Shown: piece after piece, positions 383 through 41,350 of the stretch
Layout: each line of letters starts with the position of its first letter
Position numbering within the stretch: position 1 is the stretch's first letter
Virus record (IMG/VR): IMGVR_UViG_3300036820_000646
Span: 1 to 52,214 of that record
Length of the DNA: 52,214 bases
DNA from: a virus
Lineage: Duplodnaviria; Caudoviricetes
Reading direction: 5' to 3' (one strand)
Notes under the pieces: model-generated
Seen by the model: the letters and a program-made list of their open reading frames with translations, nothing else
Told to the model about the DNA's origin: nothing
The model's database searches: none
Made by a program: the position numbers and the translations under genes

Positions 383-1087
383 CTACGCCAGTCCGCGGGC
401 CCGCTGGGCGCCGACCGTGTTGGCCAGGGCCGCATCAGTGCCCATTTCGACGGCCAGCTCGATACCGACTAAGTATCTCTCTGTTTCAGCGACAGCTCCA
501 GCCAGGTCCTCGTGATCTCTCAGGGCGATCTCGTCGCGCTCGCGTTGTTCCTTGACGAACTTCGCTATCTCGTCCATCACCCGCTTGTTCGATCGACCTT
601 CGTCTGCTCCACTTGTCAGCATCATCTGACCCGAGTTGAGTCCCCACAGCGTCGATGAAGCCAAAGCCCACCCCTGGCGGCCGTCAACGTGAAACGTTCC
701 ACCGTCGTACTCGACAAGGACCGCGTTTGGCTCAAGCATGGCCACCGCGCTGCGGATGTCGACTTCCCCGCGGTCACGCCACGCGGCCGAGTCTTCGTCC
801 GAGAGAGCTGACAGGTTCGGGCGTCGCCCTTTGGCCCGCGCTCGACGTGTCAGTCGGTCATACTCGAAATTCCAGCCACCCTTGTAGAGCGGATCGGTGA
901 GCGCATACGACACCGTGTCATTTCCGTTGTCCACGATGTCGACGCGGTACACGATGCCATCGATCACTGCTCCGACCGTGCGACGTAGGTTGCCGGCGAT
1001 CTCGACTGTCGCCTCTGGATTCGACGACGGTGCGAATTGACCACCCGTGGATTGTCCCTTCGGTCGGCGGTTCGTGACGGCAGACAT
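383..1087 (-). CDS. Hypothetical protein with N-terminal GGQFA tag
   Basis: ORF with RBS (AGGAG); starts RRPKGQSTGGQFAPSSNPEATVEI; remainder unrecognised. Confidence 0.8.
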   Translation of the reverse strand: MSAVTNRRPKGQSTGGQFAPSSNPEATVEIAGNLRRTVGAVIDGIVYRVDIVDNGNDTVSYALTDPLYKGGWNFEYDRLTRRARAKGRRPNLSALSDEDSAAWRDRGEVDIRSAVAMLEPNAVLVEYDGGTFHVDGRQGWALASSTLWGLNSGQMMLTSGADEGRSNKRVMDEIAKFVKEQRERDEIALRDHEDLAGAVAETERYLVGIELAVEMGTDAALANTVGAQRARGLA

Positions 1088-1099
1088 TGGATCTCCTTC

Positions 1100-1570
1100 T
1101 TAAGCTGACTTGGCTTCGGGTGGCATGTGGACGATCTCGGCAACCATGCAGAACGAATCGAGGACTTCGGAATCAATGAGGCGGGGGAAACCGCGTCTGA
1201 CTTCTTCCTCTATCGCCTCAACCTTGGAGCGACCTTCCTCGCAGGCGTAATCGTTGCCACCGCCTTCACCACTGTTGGAGACGTCGATCCTGACGTCGCC
1301 CACGTTCAGGTATCCAGACCAAGCGATGCCTCGCAACGTCTCGATCTCTGATGTGATCTTCATAGACGAACGACGGAGAAGCTCAAGTCCCTCCTCGTTC
1401 GGGTCGTACCATCCGCGCTCGTCGAGGTAACTGTGGATGCGAGAGACCGCGACCTCCATTGTCAGTGGAGGCGCACGGAGTTCGCTTAGCTCGACGGTCG
1501 GTTCCGGGTTCGCGCTCGGCGCGAATTGCCCTCCTACATTCGTACCCTTGGGTTCGCGTTTGAAGGTCAT
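1100..1570 (-). CDS. Hypothetical protein with N-terminal GGQFA tag
   Basis: REPKGTNVGGQFAPSANPEPTVEL; start overlaps upstream stop (ATGA). Confidence 0.8.
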   Translation of the reverse strand: MTFKREPKGTNVGGQFAPSANPEPTVELSELRAPPLTMEVAVSRIHSYLDERGWYDPNEEGLELLRRSSMKITSEIETLRGIAWSGYLNVGDVRIDVSNSGEGGGNDYACEEGRSKVEAIEEEVRRGFPRLIDSEVLDSFCMVAEIVHMPPEAKSA

Positions 1571-1989
1571 AATTGCTCCCGTGCTGCGCCGAGCTGATCG
1601 GCGGCTTCTTTTAGATCACTTACCAGACCTAAGGCGATCGCTTCCCGCTCCGGGGTGTTGGCGCCAACGTGTCCGAGGTAATCGGCTTTCGTATTGAGCT
1701 CGTCTAGCCATTCGTAAAGATCGCCCGTGGCAGCCTCCTGCTCGGCGATCTCCCTTGAGTATCCGATGATCTCCCCCACTCGAGCAAAGTCGTTCCTGCT
1801 GCCTTGGCCCCCACGGATTCGCTCGACGATGGCGGCCGCGTTGCGCAGCGCCTCGCTGACGTTGTCGCGAGTGATGGCCCAAGGGGCAAAGTAGCCGACC
1901 TCGACGTCGACGGCTGCTTCTGGATTCGACGTTGTCGCGAACTGTCCACCGCCGATGGTGCCTTTGGGCTTACGGTTAGTGGTCATCAT
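1567..1989 (-). CDS. Hypothetical protein with N-terminal GGQFA tag
   Basis: RKPKGTIGGGQFATTSNPEAAVDV; translationally coupled to neighbours. Confidence 0.8.
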   Translation of the reverse strand: MMTTNRKPKGTIGGGQFATTSNPEAAVDVEVGYFAPWAITRDNVSEALRNAAAIVERIRGGQGSRNDFARVGEIIGYSREIAEQEAATGDLYEWLDELNTKADYLGHVGANTPEREAIALGLVSDLKEAADQLGAAREQL

Positions 1990-2909
1990 TCGCCATCAAC
2001 GATTCTGAATCGGATGTCGCCGATTTGGAACTCGCCGGCGTCTTTGTCGTACGTCAACTCCGACGCCCGTCCGAAGTCCATCCAAGAGTAAACGTCGCGA
2101 TCGGCTCCGGACTTGCGGGTACGCATCGCAAACGAACCCGTCTGCACTTTGGTGACTGGACGCTTCAGTCCGACCACTTCAGGCCAGCGAGGGTTCTGCA
2201 CAACCTCGATGACGGTGCCTACTTTGATCGTCCTCTTCAGGTCGGCCATCGTTCCCGTCTTGTGCAGCGCCGGCAGCGAAGGATCGATGACCGGCGCGTG
2301 GAACTCCTCCACCTTGGCTTGTCCGTAGTACCTCACGTCGAAGTAGTCGGTCATCACATCCGAACCGTCATGGTTGTACGTGTCGTGTATCGCCTGAATC
2401 GTTTCGCGGACTCGCGTGCCTTCTTCGCTCTCGTGCGCGGCGCCCGCACAGCGCCAGTCATGTTGACCGGGCTTGCAGCTCGAGGGGACCGTGCGTGCGC
2501 CAAAGTCCAACTCCCCCGTGCACCGACTGTCGTCGGCGGGAACTGTTGCTCCGGCCCAGTTGCTTACCTTTATGTCGATCGACGCGCCACCTGCGTACTT
2601 CTGAGTCGTCACACTGATGTCAGCGTCCTTGGGTAGGCCACCGTTCGCGACCGCCTGCTTGATGTCCTGGCGCATGAGTCCGGCGATCTCGGTGACGCCA
2701 AGATTCCTCGCGTCTTCGTATTTGGCCCCGTAGCGACGTTCGTATGGACGGCGCGGCCGCGTTTCTGGCTGACCAAGGACGAGCGGCGCGCTGTCGACGA
2801 TCACAATCGTTGGCTCGACGAAGTCCACTTGCGCTTCTGGGTTCTCAGACGGTGCGAACTGTCCTCCGACAGGCACGCCTCGGGGTTGGCGGTTTTGAGC
2901 GGTTGTCAT
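1986..2909 (-). CDS. GGQFA-tagged protein with LPD29-like (large polyvalent protein-associated) domain
   Basis: Tag RQPRGVPVGGQFAPSENPEAQVDF; then EIAGLMRQDIK...ISVTTQKYAGGASIDI...YNHDGSDVMTDYFDVRYY, resembling LPD29. Confidence 0.7.
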   Translation of the reverse strand: MTTAQNRQPRGVPVGGQFAPSENPEAQVDFVEPTIVIVDSAPLVLGQPETRPRRPYERRYGAKYEDARNLGVTEIAGLMRQDIKQAVANGGLPKDADISVTTQKYAGGASIDIKVSNWAGATVPADDSRCTGELDFGARTVPSSCKPGQHDWRCAGAAHESEEGTRVRETIQAIHDTYNHDGSDVMTDYFDVRYYGQAKVEEFHAPVIDPSLPALHKTGTMADLKRTIKVGTVIEVVQNPRWPEVVGLKRPVTKVQTGSFAMRTRKSGADRDVYSWMDFGRASELTYDKDAGEFQIGDIRFRIVDGE

Positions 2910-3568
2910 CGCGTCACCGTCGAGTCGTACTCATCGTTGAAAGGCTGCTTAGTGATGTAGTAACCGACCGCGTCTTCACGAATTCCGTTGACGAGTACTT
3001 CATCGCCAAGCTCATCGATCACCGAGGACCACACGTGGTCCGACGGCTGTGACTTGACGAACGCGAGGTCAGTGCCGGACGTCTCGAACGTGCCGCCGTA
3101 ACGCTCATCAAGTGAGTCGTCGGAACCACGGACGGGGTGAGGAATCGGCTCGTAGAGGTCCGCGAAGTCATCCCGGTTCATCTGGCGGTTGAACGACTCC
3201 TCCTCGTCGTACGGAGCGATCTCGTCAACCACCTCCATGAAGGATTCAGCCAGCGGTTCAAACATGCGGCTGTCGCGATCGGCTTCGGCGAGGAACCTGT
3301 CGGCGACCGCGCGCCACTGCTCGGGCGTGAGATCGCGATCACCGTCGTAGTAGCCACGGTTCCTGAACCAATAGAGAGCCGGCTCGTCGTCTGGCAGGTT
3401 CGCTAGCTGCGCTCGAAGCTCTCCGACCGTTGGCCCCTCATAACCCTCGTACGGATTTACCAACGCGCGGCCGAGATCGACGGTGGCTTCCGGGTTCGTC
3501 GACGCGGCGAACTGCCCACCTGCGTCGGCGCCTTTGGGCACGCGACTTTGTCCATTGAGATCTCCCAT
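2906..3568 (-). CDS. Hypothetical acidic protein with N-terminal GGQFA tag, first gene of five-gene tagged operon
   Basis: RVPKGADAGGQFAASTNPEATVDL; AAGGAG RBS. Confidence 0.8.
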   Translation of the reverse strand: MGDLNGQSRVPKGADAGGQFAASTNPEATVDLGRALVNPYEGYEGPTVGELRAQLANLPDDEPALYWFRNRGYYDGDRDLTPEQWRAVADRFLAEADRDSRMFEPLAESFMEVVDEIAPYDEEESFNRQMNRDDFADLYEPIPHPVRGSDDSLDERYGGTFETSGTDLAFVKSQPSDHVWSSVIDELGDEVLVNGIREDAVGYYITKQPFNDEYDSTVTR

Positions 3569-3577
3569 GTCTCCTTT

Positions 3578-3604
3578 GATGGGAGTTCTTCTCGCAATCG
3601 GCCA
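3578..3604 (-). promoter_or_regulatory. Bipartite motif TGGCCG-N11-AACTCCCATC, 9 nt upstream of ATG 3568 (copy 1)
   Basis: Identical boxes and spacing at 31566-31592 and 41360-41386. Confidence 0.8.
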
Positions 3605-3748
3605 CGTCTTTGAGTGTCCGTTGGAGGATCGTCTATCGGGACGAAAGGTGCGGGACGGTCCTTTGTGATGGCGCCTGGGTTTCGGGAGTCCCGTTTAGGC
3701 CGTCCGAATAAGTACTGTCTAAGGTGCCTTTAACGGTACGCTTTTCCC

Positions 3749-15273: not shown

Positions 15274-16314
15274 TTAGTGGTGCGCGTTCTGGTAGGGAAC
15301 GAGGCTTGGCCCGGTGCCAGGAGGCCCCCAGGCGACCACTACAGGGGCAACAGTGTTGGCACGCTCGACCAGCAGGTCCATCGTCGTCGAGGGTCCATCG
15401 TTAAATCCCTGCGTCGCGGGATCGACCTTTTCGTGGTTCCACACGATGTCGAGATTCACTTCCACAATCTCCGCACTCGGGCTCACCGACTTCTTCTGGA
15501 CCGGCGCGTTAGGTGCGACACGCGTGGCCGCCGCCACAACGGTGTCCTTGGCCGAGGAGACGCCCGTCAGCGGAAGGTAGGAGCCATCACTGTGGACGTC
15601 CCCCACCGCCAAGCGCAGGCGCGACGAACTTCCCGACACATACGCCGACAGCCAACCATTGATCGCGCCCTGTACCGGTCCTGAGACGGTGTCACTAGAT
15701 GAGAGGCCCGACCACGGGCCCCCGCCATCCCATCCGCTCACTGTCCCCGTTGGTGGGACCACGATGAGGCTCGGTCCTCCAAGCGCAACGGCACCGCCAC
15801 CGGCCTTTAGTGCGACCTCAACCGTGGCGTCGTAGATCGTCTGAGAATTAGCGCTCGGAACGGTCAACGTGAATGAATCCAGTTCGGCGGTCCATGTTGG
15901 ATCTCCGTTCGCCGATCCAGTCGATGGAGCTACATCATTCGCACCGTCCCACGAGAGAACCGTCGCATGAGGCAATGGCGAAGGTGTTTCCGCCAGCCAC
16001 TGCTGTATCTCGAGTGTTGCAACCGTGCGACCGGGACTGCTCGAGGCCGATCCTGAGTCGTTGGTTATGGGAGGCGCGGAGTGAAAGCTCACCAAGATGA
16101 CGAAGAAAGCCAACACCAGCACGAACGGCAACGCGACCGCGGAGAATCGAACGTAACGGCGAATGCGATGCTGCCTCTTAGCGATGAGGTCGGCAGCAGG
16201 AGTACCGACGCGCGGTACTAACTCGTCGCGGTAGTCCCAGACCAACGAGGACGCGGAAGTGTTCGTTGCTGGACGACGATTCGTCGTTGGCTTGCGCTTC
16301 GTTTTACCATTCAT
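15274..16314 (-). CDS. Bitopic membrane protein, possible VirB8/TcpC-like conjugation protein
   Basis: Single TM (VALPFVLVLAFFVILV), large extracytoplasmic region, adjacent to VirB4-like gene. Confidence 0.55.
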   Translation of the reverse strand: MNGKTKRKPTTNRRPATNTSASSLVWDYRDELVPRVGTPAADLIAKRQHRIRRYVRFSAVALPFVLVLAFFVILVSFHSAPPITNDSGSASSSPGRTVATLEIQQWLAETPSPLPHATVLSWDGANDVAPSTGSANGDPTWTAELDSFTLTVPSANSQTIYDATVEVALKAGGGAVALGGPSLIVVPPTGTVSGWDGGGPWSGLSSSDTVSGPVQGAINGWLSAYVSGSSSRLRLAVGDVHSDGSYLPLTGVSSAKDTVVAAATRVAPNAPVQKKSVSPSAEIVEVNLDIVWNHEKVDPATQGFNDGPSTTMDLLVERANTVAPVVVAWGPPGTGPSLVPYQNAHH

Positions 16315-16720
16315 CGTCGTCTCCGTGATCGATCACGAGGGGCTCAAAAGAGTCGTCGTCACTGGCGACAACGGGAAGTGTGCGATGTGCCGGACGCGTT
16401 TGTGCGTGAGCGACCGCTGGATTCGAGGCGGGCACATCACGTCGCTCACGATGACGACGAGCTGCAAAGTGAACCGAACTCTCACCGTCTTCCATCAGAG
16501 TTTCGATTACCTCGTTATCAGCGGACTCTTCGTTCGCGAGCGCGAGGCGGACCCACGCTTCGGGGGCATTGATGAGTTCCTGCACACACGACGCGCAACG
16601 CACGTCGCCTTCGCGCGCGACTCGTTCGCGACACGGTTGCCAGCAACGATGGCACTCGCCAGGGCTGTGAAGTCGATCATGCGGGTGCTTGCCACGTCGC
16701 CACGATTGGCAGCGCTTCAT
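16304..16720 (-). CDS. Hypothetical protein with CxxC pairs and short helical repeat
   Basis: CHRC, CASC, WVRLALANE..; overlaps/abuts neighbours in operon. Confidence 0.6.
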   Translation of the reverse strand: MKRCQSWRRGKHPHDRLHSPGECHRCWQPCRERVAREGDVRCASCVQELINAPEAWVRLALANEESADNEVIETLMEDGESSVHFAARRHRERRDVPASNPAVAHAQTRPAHRTLPVVASDDDSFEPLVIDHGDDDEW

Positions 16721-17242: not shown

Positions 17243-17283
17243 GCCCTTCACCATGCGGCCACTTTTCCGCTGAGTCGGCTCGC

Positions 17284-18405: not shown

Positions 18406-18465
18406 GGACAGGTCGTGCACCGAGCCAACGAATTCTGTCCCGCCTAACTAATGAAGGCGCATCTC

Positions 18466-26104: not shown

Positions 26105-26167
26105 ACCCCTCTATGTGACGAGGTCGGAAATAGCGAACGCTGCCCTGATTCAAACGTCTAACGGGCA

Positions 26168-26626
26168 TTAAACCCGTCGATTGAGCACCATCGCGTAGTA
26201 GCCGCGTCCCCCATTAACGAATCGCCCGGCAGCTACGAAGCCGCTCGAGTGGTGCAGCGCGAACGCAGCACTGTTCTCCATCTCACACGCGAGGACTGGC
26301 ACTCCTCCTTCTGCACGAATCGCGCTGATCGCTGCGCCAACCAGTGCTCCGCCGACGCCACGGCGTCGATAGTCGCTTGCGACGAAGATTCTCCCAAGAG
26401 AGACCGCGTCACTCAGATCGCTAAGCGCGTCCTTGATCGGTGACCACAACTTCCCCCAGCCGACGTGCCCAACGGCCAGGTGTTGATTGTCGATCGCCAA
26501 GAGACGCTGCTCGTAGGCTCGCTCCTCTTTCAATATCGACTCGATCTCCGGGTGCAATGTCATTCGACCGATACAGTCACTGGCGTCGACGATGTCGTGC
26601 GTCCAATACTTCACGGCCGTGGTCAT
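26168..26626 (-). CDS. GNAT family acetyltransferase
   Basis: RIFVASDYRRRGVGGALV, ENSAAFALHHSSGF. Confidence 0.85.
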   Translation of the reverse strand: MTTAVKYWTHDIVDASDCIGRMTLHPEIESILKEERAYEQRLLAIDNQHLAVGHVGWGKLWSPIKDALSDLSDAVSLGRIFVASDYRRRGVGGALVGAAISAIRAEGGVPVLACEMENSAAFALHHSSGFVAAGRFVNGGRGYYAMVLNRRV

Positions 26627-29406
26627 CTCCCGGCCTCTCGGGCCAGCGTGTCCTCGGCCAAGATCTCGCCCCGACCACTGATGAGTTCGAGCGTGCGCAA
26701 CTTAGACAGTGCGTTGCCAAATGAGCTGCTCGTTTCGGAGTACCCACTCAACTTCGCGACTTCCTCGCGTGACAGCGACGCGGGCCACGCTTCGATCGCT
26801 ACGCCAAGAATGATGCGCTCGGCCTTGCCCAGCTTGGAATTCCAATGATCGAGCAATGCTCGCCCCGTCGGGAGTGGCTCGTATTGACCAGCGATAGCGT
26901 CAATCCCTTCGTTCGTCGCGCGAATCGGCTCGCCGCTCTTGTTGATGTATCCGAGCGTGCGAAGCCTCGAGAGCGCATTACCGAATGATGAGGACTTCGC
27001 TGAGTAGCCACTGAGGGTCGCCACCTGAGAACGGGTTCGGCCATCGGCGAACTGAGCGAGTACCGAGAGAATCGATCGCTCGGCTTTGCCCATCTGCGTG
27101 GGGAGATCGTTGTTCGACTTCCCCGCCCGCTCAGTCGTCGCAATCGACGGCGTCGGGGCCGAGATCACGGCGCGCTTAGGAGCCTTCGAGGACTTCGATT
27201 CGCCGTCAAGACGAGCATCCAGCACGTGTGAACCTACGACGCGCTTCACGTGACCGCTCAACAGCACGCTTGCCCCTTCGAGACCCTTCTGCACTTCGGC
27301 GAGTAGATCGTCGAGAAGACCCTCGGGAATGAAAGGAACCGGTACTTCGATTCGTTCAGTCACGATCTGTGGCTCTGACAGCACCGCAGGCTTGGCGGCC
27401 AGTTGCTTCTCGAGCTCAACGATGCGCCTCTGCAACGCCTTGGGGTCATTCGCCTCGGCTCGTTGGATGGCTTCTGCCATCTGGTCCTTGACGGCGCTGA
27501 GGTCCACTGCCGCGAACTTGCTTGGTTCGACCCTCTTCTGTCCAGGCTTCGGCGTTGCCGATGAGTTGAACGTGTGTCGCTCGCGGATCTGCACTCGATC
27601 AAAGAGTGGCGGCTCTCCACCGGGCTCCCAAATCCACGCTTCCCCGAGCCCAAGACTAGAGAGCGAGCCCATCATCGCCCTGCGCTGCTCGTCATCCGCG
27701 TCGGACTTCAAGTAATCCTCTATCGCACGCCGGTCATTAGGGCCGACCACTCGAAGCGCGATGAGGACGTCTATCTGTTCGAGCACGTTCTTGTTGACGA
27801 CGGCGGCACGCTGTGAGATGAGGGTCGTTCCGAGTCCACGGATGCCGCCGCGACGAACGATGGCCTCGAATGCTCCGAGCAGGCGTTGATCCGTCTCACG
27901 GGCCTCGCCCCGACCTCCGCCCACTCGTTGCGGACAGTTACCCGTGACGAAGACGCGACCGTTACGTCTTGCCACGAACGCGCCAGAGGGAAGCGTAATG
28001 TCCCAAACGAGACCTTTGTAGGTAGCCCGATATGGACGACGTACCCAATGCGCCGACGAAGTGCGACGACACACGTTCACCGTCCACTGTCCGTTCGACT
28101 TCTCAAAGCGCTTCGTGGTACTGATGCCGAGTCTGGTAGCGAGTTCCTGAAACTCATCTGCAAGTTGTTCGTTCTTACCTGGGTAAAAGCGAACCCACAC
28201 GCCCCTGTCAGAAGTTCCGTCGCCTTCCATGAGTCCCTGGTAAAGCGAGGAGAGTTGCTCCGGCGATCCCTCTTCGAGAATTCGTCTCGGTATTCGATGA
28301 AGATCCTCGCCGAGCCAGTCACCGATCGCGTCTGATAATTCGTGGCCGAAGTACCACGAATATGACTCCGCTCCCGTGATGGTCCCTTCGCCGCCGCCGG
28401 GCTTCGGACCGACCCGAGATGGTCGGAGATAGCGTCGAGAATCAGTAAATTGATCGAGTGCAGTCGACATCTCTTCGGTCATCGAAACTCCGCGCTTGAC
28501 CGTCGCAGTGGACTGCTGGAGCGCCAACACTTTCGACTTACGTCGGTCGTGCCAATGGCCGTCTGTGATGACCCAACCCATGATGCGCAAAACCTCATTA
28601 GAGAGGTCGGGAACCCCAATTCCGGGAGGTGCGCCACCCGCCGGGACCTCGATGGACGTCGGAACTTCTCCCGCGGGACAGAAAGACCAGTCGTATTTCT
28701 TGTAACGGCCGGCCGCCCTCTGCTGGCGGCGCAACACCACTCGGTGATCTGGTGTAACTAGGCAGTCGAGACTCTTCGTTTTGAGACCAATCATCTCGCC
28801 ATCGTGGTAACGGTGTAGGACGGCCCGGACGGGCTCATATCTATATTCCTCTGTCGCCATATCGAACCCAACAGCCACCGTTCCCTCGTGGACTTGGTCC
28901 CATGTCGCCCACCCATGATCGGTGAGGATTTCTGTGTCGGCGGTCATGCAGAACCGGTCGGCCTCGTCGACGAAGAGGTGCATCGGGAAATCCATGTTGG
29001 GTTGGGCCTTACGGCGAAACAATCGCTCGGCGAAGTCGGTAGCGAATTGGCGCTCGCCTGCTCCCGACTCGAAGAGCGAGAAGTCAATGACGTACCAACC
29101 CGGATAATCGAGAACAAGGTCAGCAATGAACTTGCCAGCTCCACGCTCTAACGGTAGGTCACCGTGTTGTCCGCCCAGAATGACGACGGGCAGTCCAGGT
29201 TTTTTGCCGTCGGCACTCGACCGCAGGCCCCACCAAGAACCTGTCGGGTCGAGAGCAACGAACGGGATCTTTGCCGCGACCATCTCCTCAGCGATGACCG
29301 AAGCTGAATATGTCTTCCCCTTTCTGCGTTGGGCGAGGATCGCCGCGGTCTTCGTGACGTAGTCATCCGTTAACGAAAGAGACTTGGAGATTTTTAGGTT
29401 CGTCAT
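26623..29406 (-). CDS. HerA/FtsK-like ATPase with intein and tandem C-terminal winged-HTH repeats
   Basis: LAQRRKGKTY, ALDPTG, LFVDEADRF, RRGGIRG, ISQR; two SSSFGNALS.LRTL repeats. Confidence 0.8.
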   Translation of the reverse strand: MTNLKISKSLSLTDDYVTKTAAILAQRRKGKTYSASVIAEEMVAAKIPFVALDPTGSWWGLRSSADGKKPGLPVVILGGQHGDLPLERGAGKFIADLVLDYPGWYVIDFSLFESGAGERQFATDFAERLFRRKAQPNMDFPMHLFVDEADRFCMTADTEILTDHGWATWDQVHEGTVAVGFDMATEEYRYEPVRAVLHRYHDGEMIGLKTKSLDCLVTPDHRVVLRRQQRAAGRYKKYDWSFCPAGEVPTSIEVPAGGAPPGIGVPDLSNEVLRIMGWVITDGHWHDRRKSKVLALQQSTATVKRGVSMTEEMSTALDQFTDSRRYLRPSRVGPKPGGGEGTITGAESYSWYFGHELSDAIGDWLGEDLHRIPRRILEEGSPEQLSSLYQGLMEGDGTSDRGVWVRFYPGKNEQLADEFQELATRLGISTTKRFEKSNGQWTVNVCRRTSSAHWVRRPYRATYKGLVWDITLPSGAFVARRNGRVFVTGNCPQRVGGGRGEARETDQRLLGAFEAIVRRGGIRGLGTTLISQRAAVVNKNVLEQIDVLIALRVVGPNDRRAIEDYLKSDADDEQRRAMMGSLSSLGLGEAWIWEPGGEPPLFDRVQIRERHTFNSSATPKPGQKRVEPSKFAAVDLSAVKDQMAEAIQRAEANDPKALQRRIVELEKQLAAKPAVLSEPQIVTERIEVPVPFIPEGLLDDLLAEVQKGLEGASVLLSGHVKRVVGSHVLDARLDGESKSSKAPKRAVISAPTPSIATTERAGKSNNDLPTQMGKAERSILSVLAQFADGRTRSQVATLSGYSAKSSSFGNALSRLRTLGYINKSGEPIRATNEGIDAIAGQYEPLPTGRALLDHWNSKLGKAERIILGVAIEAWPASLSREEVAKLSGYSETSSSFGNALSKLRTLELISGRGEILAEDTLAREAGR
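27937..28950 (-). mobile_element. Intein (338 aa) with LAGLIDADG homing endonuclease in HerA-like ATPase
   Basis: Starts CMTADTEILT, TPDH block B, GWVITDG and GLMEGDG motifs, ends VFVTGN followed by C(+1). Confidence 0.92.
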
Positions 29407-30488: not shown

Positions 30489-31556
30489 TCAGAGAAGGCC
30501 GAGACGAGTGCTGCGTCCGCGTAAGTAGTCACGGGCCCGCGCGACACTGGGCATGAATTCACGACGCGCGCTCACCTTGGCGGGGCATCGGTGCGATTCG
30601 GTCGCGTAAGCGCGCAGACACTTGCCGCACTCCTTTACCTCCACGCGTTCAGACTGCCCTCGAATCATCTGATTGAAGATTCGGCCCGGAGCCTCCGACT
30701 GCGCAACGCGCATGAATGCGGCGATGGGGACCTTAAACCCGTAGAGCCGCGATCCACCTTTGTTGGACTCCGTAGCCATGACCATCGTCCCCGTGACCTT
30801 TTCGTATGCCACCCCGGAGATCCACGAAGAGCTCACTGACTTGACCGGTACGCCGAGCTGGGCGGCGCGCTGACGCCGGCGCTCGAGGATGTCTCCGACC
30901 TCGGCTAACGCGCGACTGGGCCGACGCGACTCGAGGACGCACTGAACCGACTCGGCAACGTAGGCCGACTGATCGGGCGTGAAGCCGAGGCCCTGCGTGG
31001 CCCATGATCCATCTTCACCGCGCGCGACACGGACCCAGCCATCGAACTGCCCACCGGGAAACTGCGCCGAGACCGGCACGTCGAATGTGTCACCACTGTC
31101 TTTGCCGGGAACGTTCGCCAGGGAGAAGTCCTTGATCGCCGCCGCCGAGGGCATCCGAATGGCCACCTGGTCATTCGCGTAGGCCATGCGGTGTGTGCGC
31201 CGATGTCCAGCGATGGAGTTGCCACCCGTGTGCTGGGGTGTCCAGTCATCGGGCATCTGGGCGTAGCCCCCCTCGGGGTGGTTGTACTCACCGGCAGCCA
31301 TGTGTCGGTCCCACCACTCACGCCGATGCGCGGTTGAGTTGGGATCGACGAGGAGCGGTGCGGTCGCGGCGGGCACGTAACCCATCAGGCTCAGAGCCTC
31401 GACGCGCTCGCGGAGGAACTCTCGAGGGTCGACGGGGATAAGCGTCGGTGTGGGCTGGTCGTTGAAGAGGTCGACTTGCGCTTCTGGATTCACAGAGGCC
31501 GCGAACTGTCCCCCAGTCGTTTGACCCTTGGGTTGACGTGATCGATCCTTGTCCAT
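30489..31556 (-). CDS. GGQFA-tagged protein with C-terminal KTSC-like domain
   Basis: Tag RQPKGQTTGGQFAASVNPEAQVDL (31467-31538); VSSSWISGVAYE...LYGFKVP...SEAPGRIFNQMIRG matches KTSC; then CxxC...HxC. Confidence 0.8.
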   Translation of the reverse strand: MDKDRSRQPKGQTTGGQFAASVNPEAQVDLFNDQPTPTLIPVDPREFLRERVEALSLMGYVPAATAPLLVDPNSTAHRREWWDRHMAAGEYNHPEGGYAQMPDDWTPQHTGGNSIAGHRRTHRMAYANDQVAIRMPSAAAIKDFSLANVPGKDSGDTFDVPVSAQFPGGQFDGWVRVARGEDGSWATQGLGFTPDQSAYVAESVQCVLESRRPSRALAEVGDILERRRQRAAQLGVPVKSVSSSWISGVAYEKVTGTMVMATESNKGGSRLYGFKVPIAAFMRVAQSEAPGRIFNQMIRGQSERVEVKECGKCLRAYATESHRCPAKVSARREFMPSVARARDYLRGRSTRLGLL

Positions 31557-34574: not shown

Positions 34575-35432
34575 TTACTCCTCGCTGCGGAATTTCTCTC
34601 GATTGAACCACGCAGAGCTGATCTCACTCAGCCGGTATTTCTTTTCGACATCCAGTATCGTCGTGACCTCGCCTGACGTCATCACGAATTCGCGCAAGGC
34701 AACCTCGGTTTGGACTTGGCTCGACATCTTGAATGTCTGGAGCCAGATCGCGTGTAGTCGCGTGACGTCGCGCAGATTCTCCAACTCAATCAAACCAATG
34801 CCGTAACGAATGCGATCGATGTATTGCTTGCGCGTCTTCCACTCTGCTTTCACCGCTGCGGATTCTTCGGGGTGCTTACGAATGAATCTCGACGTCAGCG
34901 TGGGCTGACTCCTTTCCCACTTCTCAAACTCGTCTTCGTAAATGGTCAGGTCGCGCCCGTACCTATCGGCGTTCTGGACGTTCGCCAACGCGGAGTCGTG
35001 CAGAACACAGCGGGCCCAGTGGTCCACGATCTGCTCCACATCGGAGTAAGAGGGTGGATACTGCCAGCTACCGCCAGCCATCTCGAGTCGACCTCCGAGT
35101 TGAATGGCCGGCTTCTGCTCGGGCGCAAAACGAGACGCGTCGGACTCAAAGAAATGGTCGTCGCTCAAGCTGGCACGAAACGACGCTTCCATACCTTCAA
35201 GAATCGCTGCCTCGTCGCTGGGCTTGTCTCTCTTAGCGGCCGCTGCAATGGCTTCCTCGCGTTTGCGGGCCAACTCCTCAGCGGCTTTGCTCCCATCTAA
35301 CTCAGCCAATTCTGCTCCCAGATCCACATTCGGTTCCGAGATTACTTCTTTCCTTTGAGCGAAACGACCTCCCGCCCTGGTGCCTCGCGGCTGACGCGGC
35401 ACGTTCGGTTTTTCAATAAATCTCTCTACCAT
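34575..35432 (-). CDS. Hypothetical protein with divergent GG[QR]FA tag
   Basis: RQPRGTRAGGRFAQRKEVISEPNVDL at 35319-35396; last gene of the tra-like operon. Confidence 0.75.
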   Translation of the reverse strand: MVERFIEKPNVPRQPRGTRAGGRFAQRKEVISEPNVDLGAELAELDGSKAAEELARKREEAIAAAAKRDKPSDEAAILEGMEASFRASLSDDHFFESDASRFAPEQKPAIQLGGRLEMAGGSWQYPPSYSDVEQIVDHWARCVLHDSALANVQNADRYGRDLTIYEDEFEKWERSQPTLTSRFIRKHPEESAAVKAEWKTRKQYIDRIRYGIGLIELENLRDVTRLHAIWLQTFKMSSQVQTEVALREFVMTSGEVTTILDVEKKYRLSEISSAWFNREKFRSEE

Positions 35433-35971
35433 TCGCTCGTCCCCTGTGTCGGTGCTGGCGCTTCGTCCTCTTCACTGTCTTCACTCATCAGGTCTGTAAC
35501 GAGCGCCCAATTCCAGAGACTGACGAACCGACCTTCGTCCACATCGGTAATGACTCCAGCCTCGGCCAAGAATCGGAAAAAGATCGCCGTCCCAATGAGA
35601 TCGTCTCCGACGAGATCGCGCGTCTCAAACTCAACCACCCCCCGAGGGTCATATTGACCCCAGACGGCATCCACGAGTTCGTCGCGGCTCCTGCCGAGGT
35701 ATTCACTCCAGAGATCTCTCGACGACTGTGCGGTCTGGTCTCGGACCCACCCTCGAAACGCCTCCAACACGCGTCGAGCAGATTGATTTCCCGGATCATC
35801 CATGTAGTTGGCGATTCGTTGGTCGTCCGATCCGATGGCGATCAGCAGTGCGATCGTCGGAAGAGCAAGGACGTTGTCCACGAGGACAAGATCGATAGGA
35901 AAGCCCGCCGGCGAAATGAGACCGGTGAGGTCCTCAAATTCATCGTTGAGATCTTTGGTTTCTGTGCTCAC
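35426..35971 (-). CDS. Hypothetical acidic protein
   Basis: Start overlaps stop of VirB6-like gene. Confidence 0.7.
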   Translation of the reverse strand: MSTETKDLNDEFEDLTGLISPAGFPIDLVLVDNVLALPTIALLIAIGSDDQRIANYMDDPGNQSARRVLEAFRGWVRDQTAQSSRDLWSEYLGRSRDELVDAVWGQYDPRGVVEFETRDLVGDDLIGTAIFFRFLAEAGVITDVDEGRFVSLWNWALVTDLMSEDSEEDEAPAPTQGTSEW

Positions 35972-38892
35972 TATTTGTCTCCAATCGGCAATGGCTCACC
36001 GCGCTTGAACGCTTCAATGCGACGCTGTTGAATGTCGAGGCGGCGGGCAGCTTCATCGTGTGCGTCTCGCTCGGCTTGGCTCAACTCGAAACGATGCCGT
36101 GCAGCGCGCTCAGCGTCTTCTTGTTTTGCCGCGGCCTCATTTGCTCGCATCGACTCCGCGTCGGCTGTGGCCTTCTTATTTCGCGCCTCTTCGTCTGCTT
36201 TGAAGGCACGGTAGTCCTGAAGATTCTTTTGGGCTCGCAGCGGCGCGTCTTTCAGGTAGTTACGCAGTTTGTGGGCTCCGTAGACCAGTCCAGCTCCCGC
36301 CGCGACCGGAGCACCAAATCCCAAGAGCCCGGCGGCCCCGAGGCCGGCCGTACCGTACTTGAGCACTTTCGGAGCCTTCTTGACGGTCGCTTTGGCTCCC
36401 GCACCCGCTGCGGCTGCCGTAAGGACACTCCCCTTCAAGCGGTGAGTTTGACCTTCTCCATCTCTCTGGTTGAACCGCTTCCTCGAGCGCGCCAAGCTCT
36501 CCTTGATGCGAGCCCTACGAGTCACTTCAGGCTCGCCCCGTTCGGCCTTCGCCGTGCGAGGGTGCAGCACGCTGTTACTCATCTGCTCGATCCGCTTCGT
36601 GCGCTCAGCGATCCGTTCGGCTCGAGCATGCTGATTGGCCTGGTGCTGTTCGTCATCGCGGAGTTTCGGTCGACGCGCCTTGGCGAACATAGAGCCGGCC
36701 CCGGTTGCTGCTCCCTCAACAACGGGACGAGCCCCATCGGTACTGCCGGGCGACTTCGGGTCAACCGGTGTTGCCGTCGCTGCGCCCGTCTGCGCGGGTG
36801 CAGCGCCAGTCTTCGTCTGACTCGCACCCATCGAACCATTGGTTTGTGACGGACCAGACTTCGTCTTCTGTCCGCTGATCCGTCCGCGAGCGGCGCCGAC
36901 AGCCTGACCGCCGCGACGCTTCATGTGATCGAGCACATCGACCCCTACGGCAGCGGAGCCGAAGCCTCCCATCGCACCAGCGAACGCTGCCGCCCCCTTC
37001 ATCGAGAACGGGCTGGGGGCCTTAAGAACCTTGGTGATGAATAGACGAACAAGATAGAGCGCGGCGACAGGAGAGATCGTGATGAAGATCTGCGAGAAGA
37101 GTGATCCTGCCCCGGTCGCTTGTGTCCCCATCGCGGCGAGGACTGCCGTGATGATGGCTACAAAACTCAGAATCAGTCCCGCACACGTCGAAAACAAGAT
37201 GAGCCCGAAAAGGTGCTTCACGTACGCACTGAAGCGACCTTCCATCGTCGGCATCAATGCGAATATGAGCATCAACGGGAGCAAGATCATCAAGATGATG
37301 AGTGACAGTTTCGCGATGATAAGGGCGAGGGCAAGAACACCAAAGACAACCAGGATCACCGTTGAGCTCAAGAGGAAGAAGAACGCACTGGCCTCCGCTC
37401 CAGAGTTCTGAGTGCCGTGCAGGTTGCCGATGAAGTTCGCTATGCCGGTTCCGGCAGCGGATGAGTTCGTCGAAGTGGCGATCGCTGACGCAGAGTCGCC
37501 CCAGTTGAAGACTCCCAAGTCTGGGTTGAGGATCTGTCCGGGCCACGGTGCAGCGCTGGGGCTCGCGAAAGGACCGCTCGCATCGCCGTACTGGCCGCCG
37601 CTCGCAGGAGCGTTGGCTGACCAAAACGTCTGACAGTCGGCCCCATTGACCGTCGATGTCCCGGACGTCGTTGGTGAGGGCACTGTCGTGAATGCAGCGG
37701 TGGTCAATTTTCCCGTGGAGATGTCCCATTCCGAAGGTGTAAATCCGCTGCCACCAGATCCATTCGCTGGGCTTTGGCACGCGGCCCAGGCGACCATAGA
37801 TTCGTCTTCTTGGTCGTTGGTGAGTGCACCGTTCCAAGCGAGCGCGGACGCTTGAGTGACGCCGAAGGAGCTCAAATTTGAATCACCTGACAGCGAGCCC
37901 GACGCCTTGGCGACGGCCAACTGAGAAGCGGGCTGGATGCCGGCATTGTCCTCGAGTAGGTGGCAGTACATCAAGGGCGCGTAGTTGTTCGATGCGCCGA
38001 ACTGCTCGTCTTCATAGGTAGGAATCGCCGCTTGCTCCCAGAGGGAGTTCAAGGAAGTCGGCACTACGTATCCGTAACTACCGGTGGCTGTGTACGCCTT
38101 CTGGTACTCGTCAACCAACTCTTGGCTGTACCAGTAGCAACTGAGCGGATCGCTCTTCGCAATGGTCTCCTGGGTTGAGCCACCGATCGTGGCATTGGCG
38201 ACATTGGAAATCGCATTCGCCGGGCCGCTCGCAACATCGGAGATCGCGTTGTATCCGGTTTGAATGATCCACGCAGGGCTTAACGGAACGTCGTCGGTCG
38301 CGGTGGATGCCATTGCCGCGCCAACGATCGTGAACAGGATCGCCACCACCACCATGAACTTGATGATCTGACGGAAGAAGTTCCCACGGCCGCGGAGGGC
38401 ACGCCACGCCAGCGTGACAAGGGCCAAGACTGCCAAGACACCAAGCAGTGGGGACGTCGTAATTCCGGTCCCGAGCTTTCCCGCGAACGTGTTTGCCATC
38501 TCGCCCACGGTGTTGGCGAAACAGAACTGACTGGCTCCTTCGGTCGCGGAGGCGGCGAGCTGCCATTCCGATGCACCAATCGAGGTCATGCCGCCCACGA
38601 AGACTGACCTGTCGATGGAACTTGGCGCATTCGAGATCCCGCTCAGAAATCCGCCGGGCAAGCGTTCGTGCTCATCGCCGAGCGAACCCGACCAGCGGTT
38701 GATGGGCAGGTCGTTGTCCGCCGCCGTGGCGCTCGACGCTGTCGTGCCACAGATGAGTCCGGTCTGAGTCCCTGTGGTGTTGGTTGGCGTTGTGCTCGCA
38801 GCCCCTGCCGGTCCAGATGACAGAAGTAGCGCGAAGAGTGGAACAACTATGACGCCGAGTGCGGCAATGCGACGGTGTCGAACGTTTCTCAT
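35971..38892 (-). CDS. VirB6/TrbL-like polytopic conjugation membrane protein
   Basis: 973 aa; signal peptide, TM pairs, large extracellular loop, cluster of TMs, Gly/Ala-rich basic cytoplasmic tail. Confidence 0.7.
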   Translation of the reverse strand: MRNVRHRRIAALGVIVVPLFALLLSSGPAGAASTTPTNTTGTQTGLICGTTASSATAADNDLPINRWSGSLGDEHERLPGGFLSGISNAPSSIDRSVFVGGMTSIGASEWQLAASATEGASQFCFANTVGEMANTFAGKLGTGITTSPLLGVLAVLALVTLAWRALRGRGNFFRQIIKFMVVVAILFTIVGAAMASTATDDVPLSPAWIIQTGYNAISDVASGPANAISNVANATIGGSTQETIAKSDPLSCYWYSQELVDEYQKAYTATGSYGYVVPTSLNSLWEQAAIPTYEDEQFGASNNYAPLMYCHLLEDNAGIQPASQLAVAKASGSLSGDSNLSSFGVTQASALAWNGALTNDQEDESMVAWAACQSPANGSGGSGFTPSEWDISTGKLTTAAFTTVPSPTTSGTSTVNGADCQTFWSANAPASGGQYGDASGPFASPSAAPWPGQILNPDLGVFNWGDSASAIATSTNSSAAGTGIANFIGNLHGTQNSGAEASAFFFLLSSTVILVVFGVLALALIIAKLSLIILMILLPLMLIFALMPTMEGRFSAYVKHLFGLILFSTCAGLILSFVAIITAVLAAMGTQATGAGSLFSQIFITISPVAALYLVRLFITKVLKAPSPFSMKGAAAFAGAMGGFGSAAVGVDVLDHMKRRGGQAVGAARGRISGQKTKSGPSQTNGSMGASQTKTGAAPAQTGAATATPVDPKSPGSTDGARPVVEGAATGAGSMFAKARRPKLRDDEQHQANQHARAERIAERTKRIEQMSNSVLHPRTAKAERGEPEVTRRARIKESLARSRKRFNQRDGEGQTHRLKGSVLTAAAAGAGAKATVKKAPKVLKYGTAGLGAAGLLGFGAPVAAGAGLVYGAHKLRNYLKDAPLRAQKNLQDYRAFKADEEARNKKATADAESMRANEAAAKQEDAERAARHRFELSQAERDAHDEAARRLDIQQRRIEAFKRGEPLPIGDK

Positions 38893-38912: not shown

Positions 38913-38925
38913 TTCCGGCGTTTGC

Positions 38926-39455: not shown

Positions 39456-39913
39456 CGACTTCCTTTCTTTGCTGCGTTGCTTTTCACCATGCGGCGAGTT
39501 CTTGTGTCAGTCGACAAGATGGCCAAATCCCGGACACGACCGGCCCCACTAGGCACGGAACTAGCGACGACGTAACCAAACTGGTGTCGGAGGGGCTCAA
39601 TGGGACGTGAGCAGAGGAGAAAGGTCCCTGAGACCGAGCGCCGCACGTCAACGAAGCGTTGGTAGCGACGAAGTTGCAGCCCTGAACGACTGCGTGACTC
39701 GATGAACCAAAAGGCCAGCGCCTGAATGACGAGAATGCTCATCAATGCGTACGTGCCAAGGAACGTCCACAGAACTACGGTTGCGACGATGCCGGGGATC
39801 AGCGCGAAGCCGGCAATGGTGAGGCCCCGGACCGGTAGGTCGAAGCCTTGAATGACGACGCGGCGATGTTGATTGACCGACCTCGTGAGCGGAGTCAGCG
39901 TGTAAACGTTCAT
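39452..39913 (-). CDS. VirB3/TcpE/PrgI-like membrane protein
   Basis: Two TM segments, basic C-terminus, ATGA coupling. Confidence 0.55.
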   Translation of the reverse strand: MNVYTLTPLTRSVNQHRRVVIQGFDLPVRGLTIAGFALIPGIVATVVLWTFLGTYALMSILVIQALAFWFIESRSRSGLQLRRYQRFVDVRRSVSGTFLLCSRPIEPLRHQFGYVVASSVPSGAGRVRDLAILSTDTRTRRMVKSNAAKKGSR

Positions 39914-40311
39914 TCACTCTCCGCCATTGAAAAGCCACCAACCATGACCAGCGAGTGCCGACGGAGTCGGTACATGGTGTCGGGCTTTACGCCCGTCTCC
40001 TCGTTCACGTCGGCGCTCACTACGTAGCGGATTCCGTTCTCATCCTCGCCCGCGATCACCAACGTGCCGCCAACGCCGGTGCGCGCGACGCCTTCAACGC
40101 CGACGATGGAGATCCCGCCGTCACCAGTGATAGCGATTCCTCGATCGCCCGCGACGGCATGACCTCGGTTTCCCGCGCGGGCGTAGCCGAGTTCGTCGGA
40201 GATGGAGGTGCCTTCATCGCCAGAGATGGACCGTCCGCGCACGCCCGTCACCGAGTGGCGGCCGTCGCTCGACACGGCGAGATGTGTTTGGGGGTGAATA
40301 TTTGAAATCAA
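39910..40311 (-). CDS. Gly-rich 8-residue-repeat protein (start uncertain)
   Basis: ..AGNRGHAVAGDRGIAITGDGGISIVGVEG.. periodicity; C-terminal GVKPDTMY. Confidence 0.6.
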   Translation of the reverse strand: MISNIHPQTHLAVSSDGRHSVTGVRGRSISGDEGTSISDELGYARAGNRGHAVAGDRGIAITGDGGISIVGVEGVARTGVGGTLVIAGEDENGIRYVVSADVNEETGVKPDTMYRLRRHSLVMVGGFSMAESE

Positions 40312-40330
40312 GTCGTTGTTCTCTTCCGGA

Positions 40331-41350
40331 TTAGACGGCACGGCCCTCCACGCGACTAATTGCGACCTTCCACAGATCGGCGGCGTAATCGGGAAAACGA
40401 ATAAGGGTCTCGCAGGTAACGCGACGTTGCGCGTCGTCAAGATCACCGAACGGCGCGAAGAGAGATGAGGTTGTCTCGCCGGTCTTCATGTATTGCTCGG
40501 CGCAGGCCAACGCTCCCCCAGCGTCCATGACGTCAGCTCGAGCTCGAATGGCGGCCCGCTTGCCGATAGGCACATCGAGAGTAAGAGGAGCACCAGAGTG
40601 CTCGGCAATTGCATCCCACGCCAGTGCGCGGGCCTTGACCTGCTGACCGTCAGACTTCAGTTGAGAAGCGCGGTCGCCGAATGATCCTTCCTCAAAGTCG
40701 CTTATGTCAATTTCCGCTGAGCTAGTAGCGGCTTGGAAGGATGCAACCTCAACGTGGTCGATAGGGCGACTACCACCCTCCTTCGCCCTCGTGACGCTCC
40801 AGTCCAACCCGTGCGTCGTAGGTGCTGGGATGTGGAAGTTCTCACTGGGGCGTGAATGGGCAGGGATGGACAAGCGGATCTCGCTGGAGAGGTCCTCGAG
40901 TTCTTTCGCAGACAACGCGCGGGCCAGGCGGGCTTCACGTGAAGCCTTCTCCTGGTCGAACAATCGCATGGCGGCGAAGCGTTTGTGGTCTTTGCCTTCG
41001 AGCGCACGGATGATAGAGCGCTTAGCAATGAGCGAGGTAGGAATGGGGCCGGCCTCGGGCGGACGCGTCGCGTCGGCAACAGCGGCGTTCGCGGCGACAA
41101 GATATGCCAGCACCGCGTCTTGAACTAAGTCGTCTCCGTCCATGTAGCCGTTCAATTGCTTGTTCCCAAGTCCAAAGCGACGGACATAACTGCCGGCGAT
41201 ACGTCGTGTCTCCTCGGCGCCTTCGACGAGGTCGACGGTCGCTTCGGGGTTCTGAGACGGAGCAAACTGCCCACCAACTGGCACTCCGCGCGGCTGACGT
41301 GCTCGCGATCCGGGAGTTGTGGACGTGTGCTGGCGGCTGGAGGACTCCAT
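40331..41350 (-). CDS. GGQFA-tagged sigma-factor-like protein
   Basis: Tag at 41228-41299; RRIAGSYVRRF...DGDDLVQDAVLAYL resembles sigma-70 region 2; EARLARALSAKELED resembles region 3. Confidence 0.55.
   Translation of the reverse strand: MESSSRQHTSTTPGSRARQPRGVPVGGQFAPSQNPEATVDLVEGAEETRRIAGSYVRRFGLGNKQLNGYMDGDDLVQDAVLAYLVAANAAVADATRPPEAGPIPTSLIAKRSIIRALEGKDHKRFAAMRLFDQEKASREARLARALSAKELEDLSSEIRLSIPAHSRPSENFHIPAPTTHGLDWSVTRAKEGGSRPIDHVEVASFQAATSSAEIDISDFEEGSFGDRASQLKSDGQQVKARALAWDAIAEHSGAPLTLDVPIGKRAAIRARADVMDAGGALACAEQYMKTGETTSSLFAPFGDLDDAQRRVTCETLIRFPDYAADLWKVAISRVEGRAV

Follow-up and report, generated by a model that had tools for sequence, protein, structure and literature searches.

A short N-terminal peptide on unrelated proteins of actinobacterial mobile elements looks like an undescribed address or docking label

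We analysed a stretch of 52,214 nucleotides (nt) that is filed as a virus of the Caudoviricetes (IMG/VR record IMGVR_UViG_3300036820_000646; "the window" hereafter means this whole stretch), in which eight proteins with unrelated bodies begin with copies of one peptide of 24 residues, the tag. The tag looks like an undescribed address or docking label. We hold with fair confidence that the tag is portable and docks its carriers to a common partner; our best single guess, a tentative one to which we give somewhat less than an even chance, is that it recruits proteins to a machine resembling a type IV secretion system (T4SS), for export together with DNA.

The motif, RxP[KR]Gx3GGQFAx3NPExxV[DE]x, was found in seven open reading frames (ORFs) of the window with its arginine at residue 5-18. 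Its core, [RK]xP[KR]Gx3GG[QK]F, matched seven times in a six-frame translation of the window (motif arginine at nt 1069, 1558, 1974, 2891, 3544, 31538 and 41299) and not once in 300 mononucleotide shuffles, and a looser pattern added an eighth, divergent copy (RQPRGTRAGGRFA), with GGRF and an insertion of two residues, in the ORF starting at 35432. All eight tagged ORFs that a first-pass annotation of this DNA had listed were recovered with the starts it gave, all on the minus strand, seven with a clear tag and one with a divergent tag. Five of them form an array, of which t3568 is the first gene (220 aa; 2906..3568, tag nt 3473-3544), followed by t2909 (307 aa; 1986..2909, tag nt 2820-2891), t1989 (140 aa; 1567..1989, tag nt 1903-1974), t1570 (156 aa; 1100..1570, tag nt 1487-1558) and t1087 (234 aa; 383..1087, tag nt 998-1069). 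The other three are t31556, which has a basic body (355 aa; 30489..31556, tag nt 31467-31538), t35432 with the divergent tag (285 aa; 34575..35432, tag about nt 35319-35396), and t41350 (339 aa; 40331..41350, tag nt 41228-41299). The array region (window 300-4300) recurs at 91-99% identity, with strain-level variants, in soil and peat metagenomes sequenced by 13 studies, one of them possibly its source; in one peat metatranscriptome, four small contigs fall on 330-486, 1141-1292, 1214-1363 and 3959-4175, which is not proof of transcription.

The bodies behind the tags are unrelated, as the first-pass annotation had it: in an all-against-all BLASTP of the eight proteins with their tags removed, the best E value was 0.03, obtained in a tiny database. 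Its labels for single bodies fared less well. No Pfam match at E ≤ 0.1 to the LPD29, KTSC or sigma families was seen for any of the eight proteins; of the three labels, only sigma-like, applied to t41350, has weak fold support. The helical body of t41350 gave Foldseek top matches that were mostly sigma chains (E 0.065 or worse), its residues 40-183 aligned with sigma factors at VIA Z 5.0-6.3, below the tool's caution line for helical proteins, and a profile search of PDB sequences returned no sigma factor; the modelled body may be said to bear a weak likeness to sigma-factor region 2-3. For t3568 there was no Pfam or PHROG match, and t2909 matched phrog_10415 (E 6e-12). Residues 61-202 of t2909 have homologues on plasmids of Streptomyces, Arthrobacter and Vibrio, tagged on the Arthrobacter plasmid and untagged on that of Streptomyces, which bears out the portability of the tag. 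The body domain of t1570 reappears at the C-terminus of longer tagged proteins elsewhere.

The tags of t2909 and t41350 share the identical peptide RQPRGVPVGGQFAPS, in which 11 of 15 codons differ, every change being at a third position, exactly as first counted. Over the 28 pairs of the eight window tags, 57% of codons for the same residue differ in DNA, and synonymous sites of these tags are near saturation. Because the codons differ while the peptide stays identical, selection acts on the peptide and not on the DNA, as the first-pass annotation had proposed. Its view that the tag is no Sec or Tat signal, a type that has a hydrophobic h-region behind a basic n-region and, for Tat, a twin arginine, also agrees with our data: the tag consensus is polar and glycine-rich, no hydrophobic segment was found in any of the eight tagged proteins of the window (Kyte-Doolittle, 19-residue window, threshold 1.6), and none of 41 tagged proteins of the plasmid pACHL01, described below, has a hydrophobic 19-mer. 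Class III leaders of type IV prepilins are cut at G|F, ahead of about 20 hydrophobic residues that have Glu at +5; the tag has a glutamine separating GG from F and runs into no hydrophobic stretch, so that it is no prepilin-type signal either. In the model of t41350, the sole tagged protein modelled, the tag region is predicted to be disordered, with a local confidence score (pLDDT) <50 over residues 1-37.

As the first-pass annotation had suggested, we built a profile of the eight tags (33 positions) and scanned widely with it. The profile matched 531 protein clusters at E ≤ 1e-3 among 1.84 billion cluster representatives; in the best 150 of these 531 matches, the motif lies within the first 45 residues in 145, lengths run from 38 to 382 aa, and GGQFAxxxNPE occurs exactly in 99. 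Over 146 representatives, R, G and GG are invariant and P, Q, F, A and E are conserved in at least 90%, the consensus being RQPKG-x3-GGQFA-x3-[NH]xE-x2-[VIL]-x-L, beginning 4-9 residues past Met1. The bodies of 132 representatives fall into 59 single-linkage clusters, and tagged proteins combine 1-3 shuffled modules. The tag is not covered by any curated family (among the 146 representatives, a single Pfam family matched at most 4 and a single NCBIfam family at most 3), a PDB profile search for it gave chance matches only (E ≥ 1.5), and an Atlas look-up returned a best score of 0.87, with an LPD28 cluster at 0.75, which are leads only. Literature searches on the GGQF tag, the KHPR stretch (see below) and pACHL01 gave nothing relevant among the matches listed. 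Segments resembling transmembrane (TM) helices are rare in tagged proteins (0 of 8 in the window, 0 of 41 on pACHL01, 2 of 146 representatives) and most bodies are acidic. Pfam families on tagged representatives are ArdC-N and MPTase-PolyVal, DUF2958, DUF6745, DUF7007, SSB, HTH_3, Sigma70_r2 (in one of the 146) and hexapeptide transferases; NCBIfam added Svx/AvrXca. The tag carriers of pACHL01 include, by their RefSeq names, a Fic protein and an HD-domain protein, most of them being named "hypothetical protein".

The tag is confined to one clade of actinobacterial elements, which comprises integrated islands of uncultured Acidimicrobiia and Actinomycetes and five Micrococcaceae megaplasmids. 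In 185,579 species genomes, a back-translated pattern gave 63 matches at 49 loci, with about 17 expected by chance on our estimate; 27 matches were the full tag and, except for two on L024, a contig of 1.7 kb in an Acidobacteriaceae bin, lay on contigs of uncultured Actinomycetes or Acidimicrobiia metagenome-assembled genomes (MAGs); a near-variant was found on another short contig, of an Acidobacteria bin (L030). On metagenome contigs, 41 of 80 loci carried 85 full tags, 82 of which start 1-9 residues after the start codon, and of the 19 multi-tag loci, 18 have every tag on the same strand. The complete 2.97 Mb chromosome of an Acidimicrobiaceae MAG (G001) has 18 profile matches, 17 of them within one island of 83 kb (2,201,963-2,284,428), and 0 of 400 other sampled Actinomycetota genomes carry the tag; it is thus not common on chromosomes, whereas commonness there is what the first-pass annotation had named as speaking against its view. 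The eighteenth copy, 92 kb outside the island (2109712-2109780, minus strand; locus L071), is a degenerate tag, REVKGQTNGGQLAATKNPES, placed N-terminally in a reading frame of 431 aa that contains the Fic motif HPFxDGNGRTGR; the tagged Fic protein of pACHL01 is at 26062-27330. Among 72,556 plasmids, only five Micrococcaceae megaplasmids (375-440 kb) matched, plus one chance match. pACHL01 (427 kb), from Pseudarthrobacter chlorophenolicus A6, holds 49 copies for 541 annotated features (about 9%), and a plasmid of Arthrobacter sp. zg-Y1110 has 34. The 50,697 phage records of INPHARED (tblastn) yielded one match, on Rhodococcus phage Mbo2, and a pattern search of IMG/VR also yielded one; both are false.

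IMG/VR classes the window as a provirus with a CheckV completeness of 50, and the window ends exactly at stop codons on both sides, as in a trimmed prediction. No capsid, portal or tail family was found among its proteins (PHROGs on 18 of about 45 ORFs; Pfam), and the single match to a PHROG terminase family falls in an intein-bearing ATPase. The window is collinear, in inverted orientation, with 2,212,955-2,287,258 of the G001 chromosome, core proteins being 50-80% identical; it is thus a piece of an integrated element that bears a T4SS, and what IMG/VR files as a virus is probably an integrative T4SS element. It also encodes DnaE, SSB, ParA, a resolvase, an integrase and a BglII/MT-A70 pair.

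The assignment to a T4SS is based on two proteins. The first, a VirB4-family ATPase of 836 aa (12727..15237, minus strand; Pfam AAA_10, E 8e-8), is predicted by AlphaFold2 (pLDDT 87.7) to have the full-length, two-domain VirB4 fold: the top 12 Foldseek matches were chains of R388 TrwK/VirB4 (E 1.2e-22 to 5e-16, about 900 aligned columns), with HerA and others appearing only from E 7e-11 down. In sequence profiles (TIGR00929, Pfam CagE_TrbE_VirB), the NCBIfam VirB4/TrbE matches were far below cut-offs, and nothing among PDB sequences matched at E ≤ 0.01. The second is a VirB6/TrbL-like polytopic membrane protein of 973 aa with seven hydrophobic segments (35971..38892, minus strand), which matched Pfam TrbL (E 2.3e-5) and the NCBIfam CD3337/EF1877 mobilome membrane protein (E 1.9e-10), just short of the cut-off in the first case and short of it in the second; its gene is flanked by those of small proteins with 1-2 TM segments in a TM scan (35426-35971, 39102-39455 and 39452-39913). 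Tagged genes also flank this VirB6-like cluster in conserved synteny, t41350 heading it and t35432 lying just downstream of its operon. Ahead of VirB4 in the direction of transcription (15274..18420, minus strand) are a MoxR-like AAA_5 ATPase (17284-18420) and, between it and VirB4 on the same strand, proteins of 194 aa, 138 aa and 346 aa (1 TM); these four proteins are candidate partners of the tag. The only candidate coupling ATPase of the window is a soluble HerA/FtsK-like ATPase without TM segment (26623..29406, minus strand), interrupted by a LAGLIDADG intein at about residues 154-506, of which an intein-less homologue exists in the element G003.

Co-occurrence of the tag with the VirB4 and VirB6-like genes, which the first-pass annotation had proposed to examine, was found in all six elements with enough sequence (the window, G001, G002, G003, pACHL01 and the zg-Y1110 plasmid); G004 and G005 were left out of this count. 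These two have two tags each and no VirB4 match, the G004 contig being a fragment that holds other core genes and the tag of G005 being divergent and in an unrelated context. VirB4 is 72-75% identical to the window copy in G001-G003 and 52-53% in two Micrococcaceae plasmids, and in the sample of 401 genomes tag and VirB4 were found together in the same single genome, 0 of the 400 others having this VirB4. pACHL01 is syntenic with the window at 338-372 kb, its order being VirB4, helicases, tagged genes, VirB6-like, a tagged gene, a CHAP hydrolase, HNH, SSB and DnaE. Tagged orthologues of t31556 and t41350 and the t2909 body span Acidimicrobiia to Micrococcaceae, t31556 being conserved with its tag in G001, G003, G004 and pACHL01, while t35432 has orthologues with GGRF or GGQF tags and t1087 has a tagged orthologue in the G001 island. 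Turnover is otherwise fast: only four of the eight tagged proteins of the window have G001 orthologues, though the elements are 70-80% identical. A co-fold of residues 1-45 of t2909 with VirB4 scored 0.00, which counts neither way.

The tags differ from element to element in a manner that suggests a common reader. Every element shows a dialect of its own at the "variable" positions of the tag, and unrelated proteins within the element share it: NPE-A in the window (6 of 7 tags), N-x-E-S in G001 (14 of 16), FAPDV[HN]AES in G003, and G-I-P-x-GGQFA-A-T-x-H-x-E-P on pACHL01 (I in 31, P in 36 and H in 36 of 41), and orthologues adopt the dialect of their own element. Leave-one-out profiles assigned 68 of 73 tags to the correct element, and 200 shuffles of the labels gave 26 on average and 38 at most; the test covers four elements and is of a kind inflated by relatedness. 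Recent gene conversion does not explain the likeness of tags within the window, within pACHL01 or within G002, because 45-57% of same-residue codons differ there. Since the dialects are element-specific and extend across unrelated proteins, they point to a shared binding partner, and through them a docking motif, which the first-pass annotation had listed as an alternative to transfer, is at least as well supported as transfer itself.

The tag profile also matches proteins of 972-2078 aa, in which the first half of the motif is repeated 4-8 times per protein, as WDExKHPRxPxGx3GGEFA or DPSQPRxPKGx3GGQW, each repeat preceding a module. In four such polyvalent proteins the motif stands before every module, often after a conserved AAAWDExKHPR stretch, and Pfam families on these proteins are Phage_Mu_F, ADP-ribosyltransferase, Zeta toxin, GNAT, ParB-like and ChaB. 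Because the motif heads polyvalent modules, the tagged genes of the window look like unbundled modules that kept the module header. They are not polyvalent proteins themselves: these have 2-15 effector domains per polypeptide, and the tagged proteins of the window (140-355 aa) have 0-1 recognisable domain each. Polyvalent proteins are thought to travel with invading DNA, according to the parts of Iyer et al. (2017; PMC5512222) covered here, and term searches in the main texts of PMC5512222 and PMC5576092 found no mention of the tag motif. The link cuts both ways: it connects the tag with proteins of this travelling kind, but MuF proteins are carried in phage heads and do not pass through a T4SS.

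Three transcription units that start with a tagged gene share an upstream element. AACTCCCATC has three exact copies in the window, all 10-19 nt ahead of a tagged ATG: at 3578..3587 (minus strand) before t3568, and at the same offset at 31566-31575 before t31556 and 41360-41369 before t41350. A G001 variant, TCTCCCATCTA, precedes seven tagged genes at equal distance, and a related motif, CCGCACTCTTA, lies ahead of start codons at the metagenome locus L075. L075 and two further loci of the same assembly (L102, L141) hold arrays of at most six recently duplicated tagged paralogues with near-identical tags (RQPKGQPTGGQFAAKSNPEADIEL), each preceded by CTGCCGCACTCTTA-N6-ATG. On pACHL01, the corresponding motif CCGCACACA occurs at 138 sites in 273 kb, mostly 17 nt before an ATG, and 23 of the sites precede tagged ORFs. 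The plasmid motif (loci L059-L064) reads CCG[CT]ACAC(A): untagged genes mostly have ...ACACAT, and 18 of the 23 motif-bearing tagged genes have another base than the following T, usually then GGCATG, so that there may be two promoter classes. The idea that the motif marks tagged genes only was rejected, as it is plasmid-wide on pACHL01 and a copy with one mismatch precedes an untagged window gene at about 30387; it looks like an element-specific, promoter-like signal, not exclusive to tagged genes. The sigma-like tagged protein would be a candidate reader of it.

From these observations we propose that the tag is a disordered short linear motif, grafted onto many unrelated, soluble and mostly acidic proteins of the element, and that it is most probably read by one shared, element-encoded partner. 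Docking would then recruit the tagged proteins to the divergent VirB4/VirB6 T4SS-like machine, so that a changeable kit of establishment and anti-defence proteins, e.g., ArdC-like, SSB, Fic and HD proteins and possibly a sigma-like factor, could leave the donor with the DNA. Three links are inferred: binding of a partner to the tag, membership of this partner in the T4SS, and translocation as the result of binding. Export is our best guess for three reasons: the tag is restricted to these elements, it co-occurs and is syntenic with the VirB4 and VirB6-like genes, and its carriers are soluble, turn over fast and resemble effectors. In its fullest form, the disordered N-terminal signal would send some 50 cytoplasmic proteins (about 9% of pACHL01 features) into the recipient with the DNA, among them a sigma-like factor that reads the element's promoter-like motif, the same peptide heading phage polyvalent modules; this larger picture we regard as possible and rather doubtful.

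Several observations weigh against export. A relaxase and a type IV coupling protein together mark a conjugative, self-transmissible element, and this pair was not recognised in the window. Relaxases of PF08751 (TrwC type) and PF03432 (MobA type), the only two families searched, were not found in the window, itself a fragment, or on pACHL01 and the zg-Y1110 plasmid, the TrwC matches in G001 lying outside the island; no VirD4-type coupling protein was recognised in Pfam and NCBIfam scans of the window fragment. The HerA-like ATPase has no TM segment, and with the window protein as query no homologue was found on the two Micrococcaceae plasmids, so that it was rejected as a universal coupling protein. 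MOB-suite (PLSDB) types all five tag-bearing plasmids as non-mobilizable, and IMG/VR files the window as a provirus. To our knowledge, T4SS signals are C-terminal or internal, not N-terminal, whereas the tag starts at residue 5-18 and no VirD4 was identified, which does not fit a T4SS signal of a known type. Unidirectional tagged arrays beside ParA also look like plasmid leading regions, which are expressed in the recipient without protein transport. In MuF-type proteins the partner must be something other than a T4SS, MuF being a domain of phage heads. Finally, likeness of tags within an element can stem from recent duplication: at L075, L102 and L141, tags are 92-95% identical in DNA, with only 5-8% of same-residue codons differing, and the tagged genes of L075 are recent paralogues (82-97% DNA identity for at least 240 nt beyond the tag start). 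The dialect argument for a common reader therefore rests on four elements and is suggestive.

A rival reading without export is docking onto some other shared hub, such as the MoxR-like AAA+ ATPase, the replisome (DnaE, SSB), the incoming DNA or a host factor (e.g., a protease adaptor), or a role of the tag as a common degron or timer. The dialects argue for a common reader without saying which; AAA_5, DnaE, SSB, HNH and two helicases are conserved across elements as well as VirB4; the tagged t31556 orthologue adjoins the AAA_5 gene in G004 and pACHL01; and the motif in MuF polyvalent proteins fits a partner outside the T4SS. However, no evidence singles out any one hub, 49 unrelated pACHL01 proteins on one cytoplasmic hub are hard to explain, and tagged genes turn over between close elements at a rate that one would rather expect of effector sets, so that we see a hub as a real possibility but would not bet on it.

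If the tag were instead a leader or processing site, i.e., a module header that is cut or modified, the tagged genes being unbundled polyvalent modules, this would account for its position ahead of each module in the four polyvalent proteins (4-8 times each), for the 1-3 shuffled modules of tagged proteins themselves, and for the one tagged representative that combines ArdC-N with a polyvalent-type zincin peptidase. An invariant GG, as in the tag, is also found in double-glycine leaders, which end in GG and are served by a C39-peptidase ABC exporter encoded nearby; however, no C39 peptidase or ABC family was found in the Pfam scans of the window. A stand-alone protein needs no release site, yet the tag is under strong purifying selection, and no protease is common to all elements, the Peptidase_A4 of the window having a signal peptide and not being found in the examined 273 kb of pACHL01. 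We consider a leader unlikely.

A loading signal for a capsid or another protein compartment would suit the provirus class of the window with its CheckV value, the motif in head-associated MuF-domain proteins and the precedent of short N-terminal targeting peptides. Against this stand the want of capsid, portal and tail families among the scanned window proteins, the terminase-family match that lies within an intein-bearing ATPase, the tag's absence from phage records and from IMG/VR (false matches aside), and the fact that tag-bearing elements include plasmids of 375-440 kb, and this reading seems very unlikely to us. That the tags have no common function and are remnants of a duplicated 5' segment, of gene conversion or of cryptic paralogues could hold for the recent paralogues of L075, L102 and L141, but it is largely refuted in the window by unrelated bodies and near-saturated synonymous sites, runs counter to the invariance of R, G, GG and F across 146 representatives and the retention of the tag on orthologues from Acidimicrobiia to Micrococcaceae, and is barely credible.

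The tag recalls several known systems without matching any. MIX and FIX are N-terminal motifs of type VI secretion effectors and LXG is a domain of type VII secretion toxins; in these, as here, a conserved N-terminal element is found on unrelated, fast-turnover proteins near one machine and can serve to draw up a list of the cargo. They are, however, folded domains, whereas the tag is a predicted disordered peptide of 24 residues with dialects, known from sequence alone, beside VirB4/VirB6 T4SS-like genes and no type VI or VII genes. T4SS substrates carry C-terminal charged or hydrophobic tails, the Bartonella BID, the Xanthomonas XVIPCD or, in relaxases, TSA/TSB. The tag shares with them a portable element on diverse substrates, the setting of VirB4 and VirB6 elements, and Fic and ArdC-like carriers, and differs in being N-terminal, in its unrelated sequence and in that no VirD4-type receptor or relaxase was identified. 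The internal proteins of phage T4 have an N-terminal capsid-targeting sequence and encapsulins use cargo-loading peptides, which are likewise short terminal peptides and suffice to send unrelated proteins to one destination; their sequences are dissimilar, and no shell or capsid gene was found here. With polyvalent proteins, as described in the parts of PMC5512222 covered here, the tagged proteins share ArdC-N, zincin peptidase, ART, GNAT and Zeta domains and the notion of a protein kit delivered with DNA, but each module is here a gene of its own (40-400 aa), whose product has a copy of the motif at the N-terminus together with a second half, x3-NPE-x2-V-D-L. The leading-region anti-defence arrays of conjugative plasmids (Samuel et al. 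2024; PMC11541004) are also unidirectional arrays of small, mostly unknown genes beside partition and transfer genes, with ArdC and SSB types; these genes are defined by position and early expression, and the passages of that paper covered here describe no shared peptide tag.

Other features of these elements are recorded here for completeness. Between DnaE and VirB4 the window encodes, on the plus strand (11024-12715), the Peptidase_A4 (eqolisin) protein of 563 aa, with an N-terminal hydrophobic segment and a counterpart of 65% identity in G001; near its T4SS genes pACHL01 has the CHAP-domain hydrolase instead. Inteins are frequent: a DinG-like helicase of the window (43297-47010, minus strand) has a Hom_end/LAGLIDADG intein at residues 393-456, many VirB4 homologues of the clade are 1100-1460 aa long and several have intein domains, and the DnaE ORF is 1633 aa in G001 versus 1235 aa in the window. 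The BglII-family restriction endonuclease and the MT-A70 methyltransferase with a helix-turn-helix (49702-51372, plus strand) adjoin the integrase and are 84-88% identical in G003, at another place in that element. An untagged protein of 222 aa (5875-6543, minus strand) has one hydrophobic segment and long Thr/Pro-rich runs (TTTTTKPPPTTTTT...), and only its C-terminal 71 residues are conserved in G001. pACHL01 (NC_011879.1; loci L060-L063: 11238-12836, 50166-50444, 66473-67123 and 153484-175439) encodes SecG, SecY, SecE and signal peptidase I, together with two gene sets resembling type IV pilus or type II secretion genes, with A24 prepilin peptidases. An accessory Sec pathway was considered and dropped because neither the window nor the 120 kb around the G001 island has a homologue of SecY, SecE, SecG or signal peptidase I of pACHL01. 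In the 27.3-32.7 kb region of pACHL01 no protein gene is listed and the locus tags jump, so that RNA genes may lie there.

Should the tag prove to be an address label, a single short profile would suffice to list everything that an unstudied Gram-positive secretion or transfer system carries: hundreds of protein families, largely unannotated, with likely functions in establishment, anti-defence and host takeover. Since pACHL01, with its 49 copies, resides in P. chlorophenolicus A6, a cultured soil bacterium, the question is directly testable. If the fullest form of the export reading is true, these elements would inject a conjugative "starter kit" by means of the first N-terminal T4SS signal and of a machine without recognisable relaxase or coupling protein. 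As an address label, the tag would also provide a portable peptide for protein delivery in Actinobacteria and explain the reiterated motif of phage and plasmid polyvalent proteins. Even without export, a docking peptide used throughout an element, in a dialect specific to that element, would represent an unusual case of one-to-many co-evolution.

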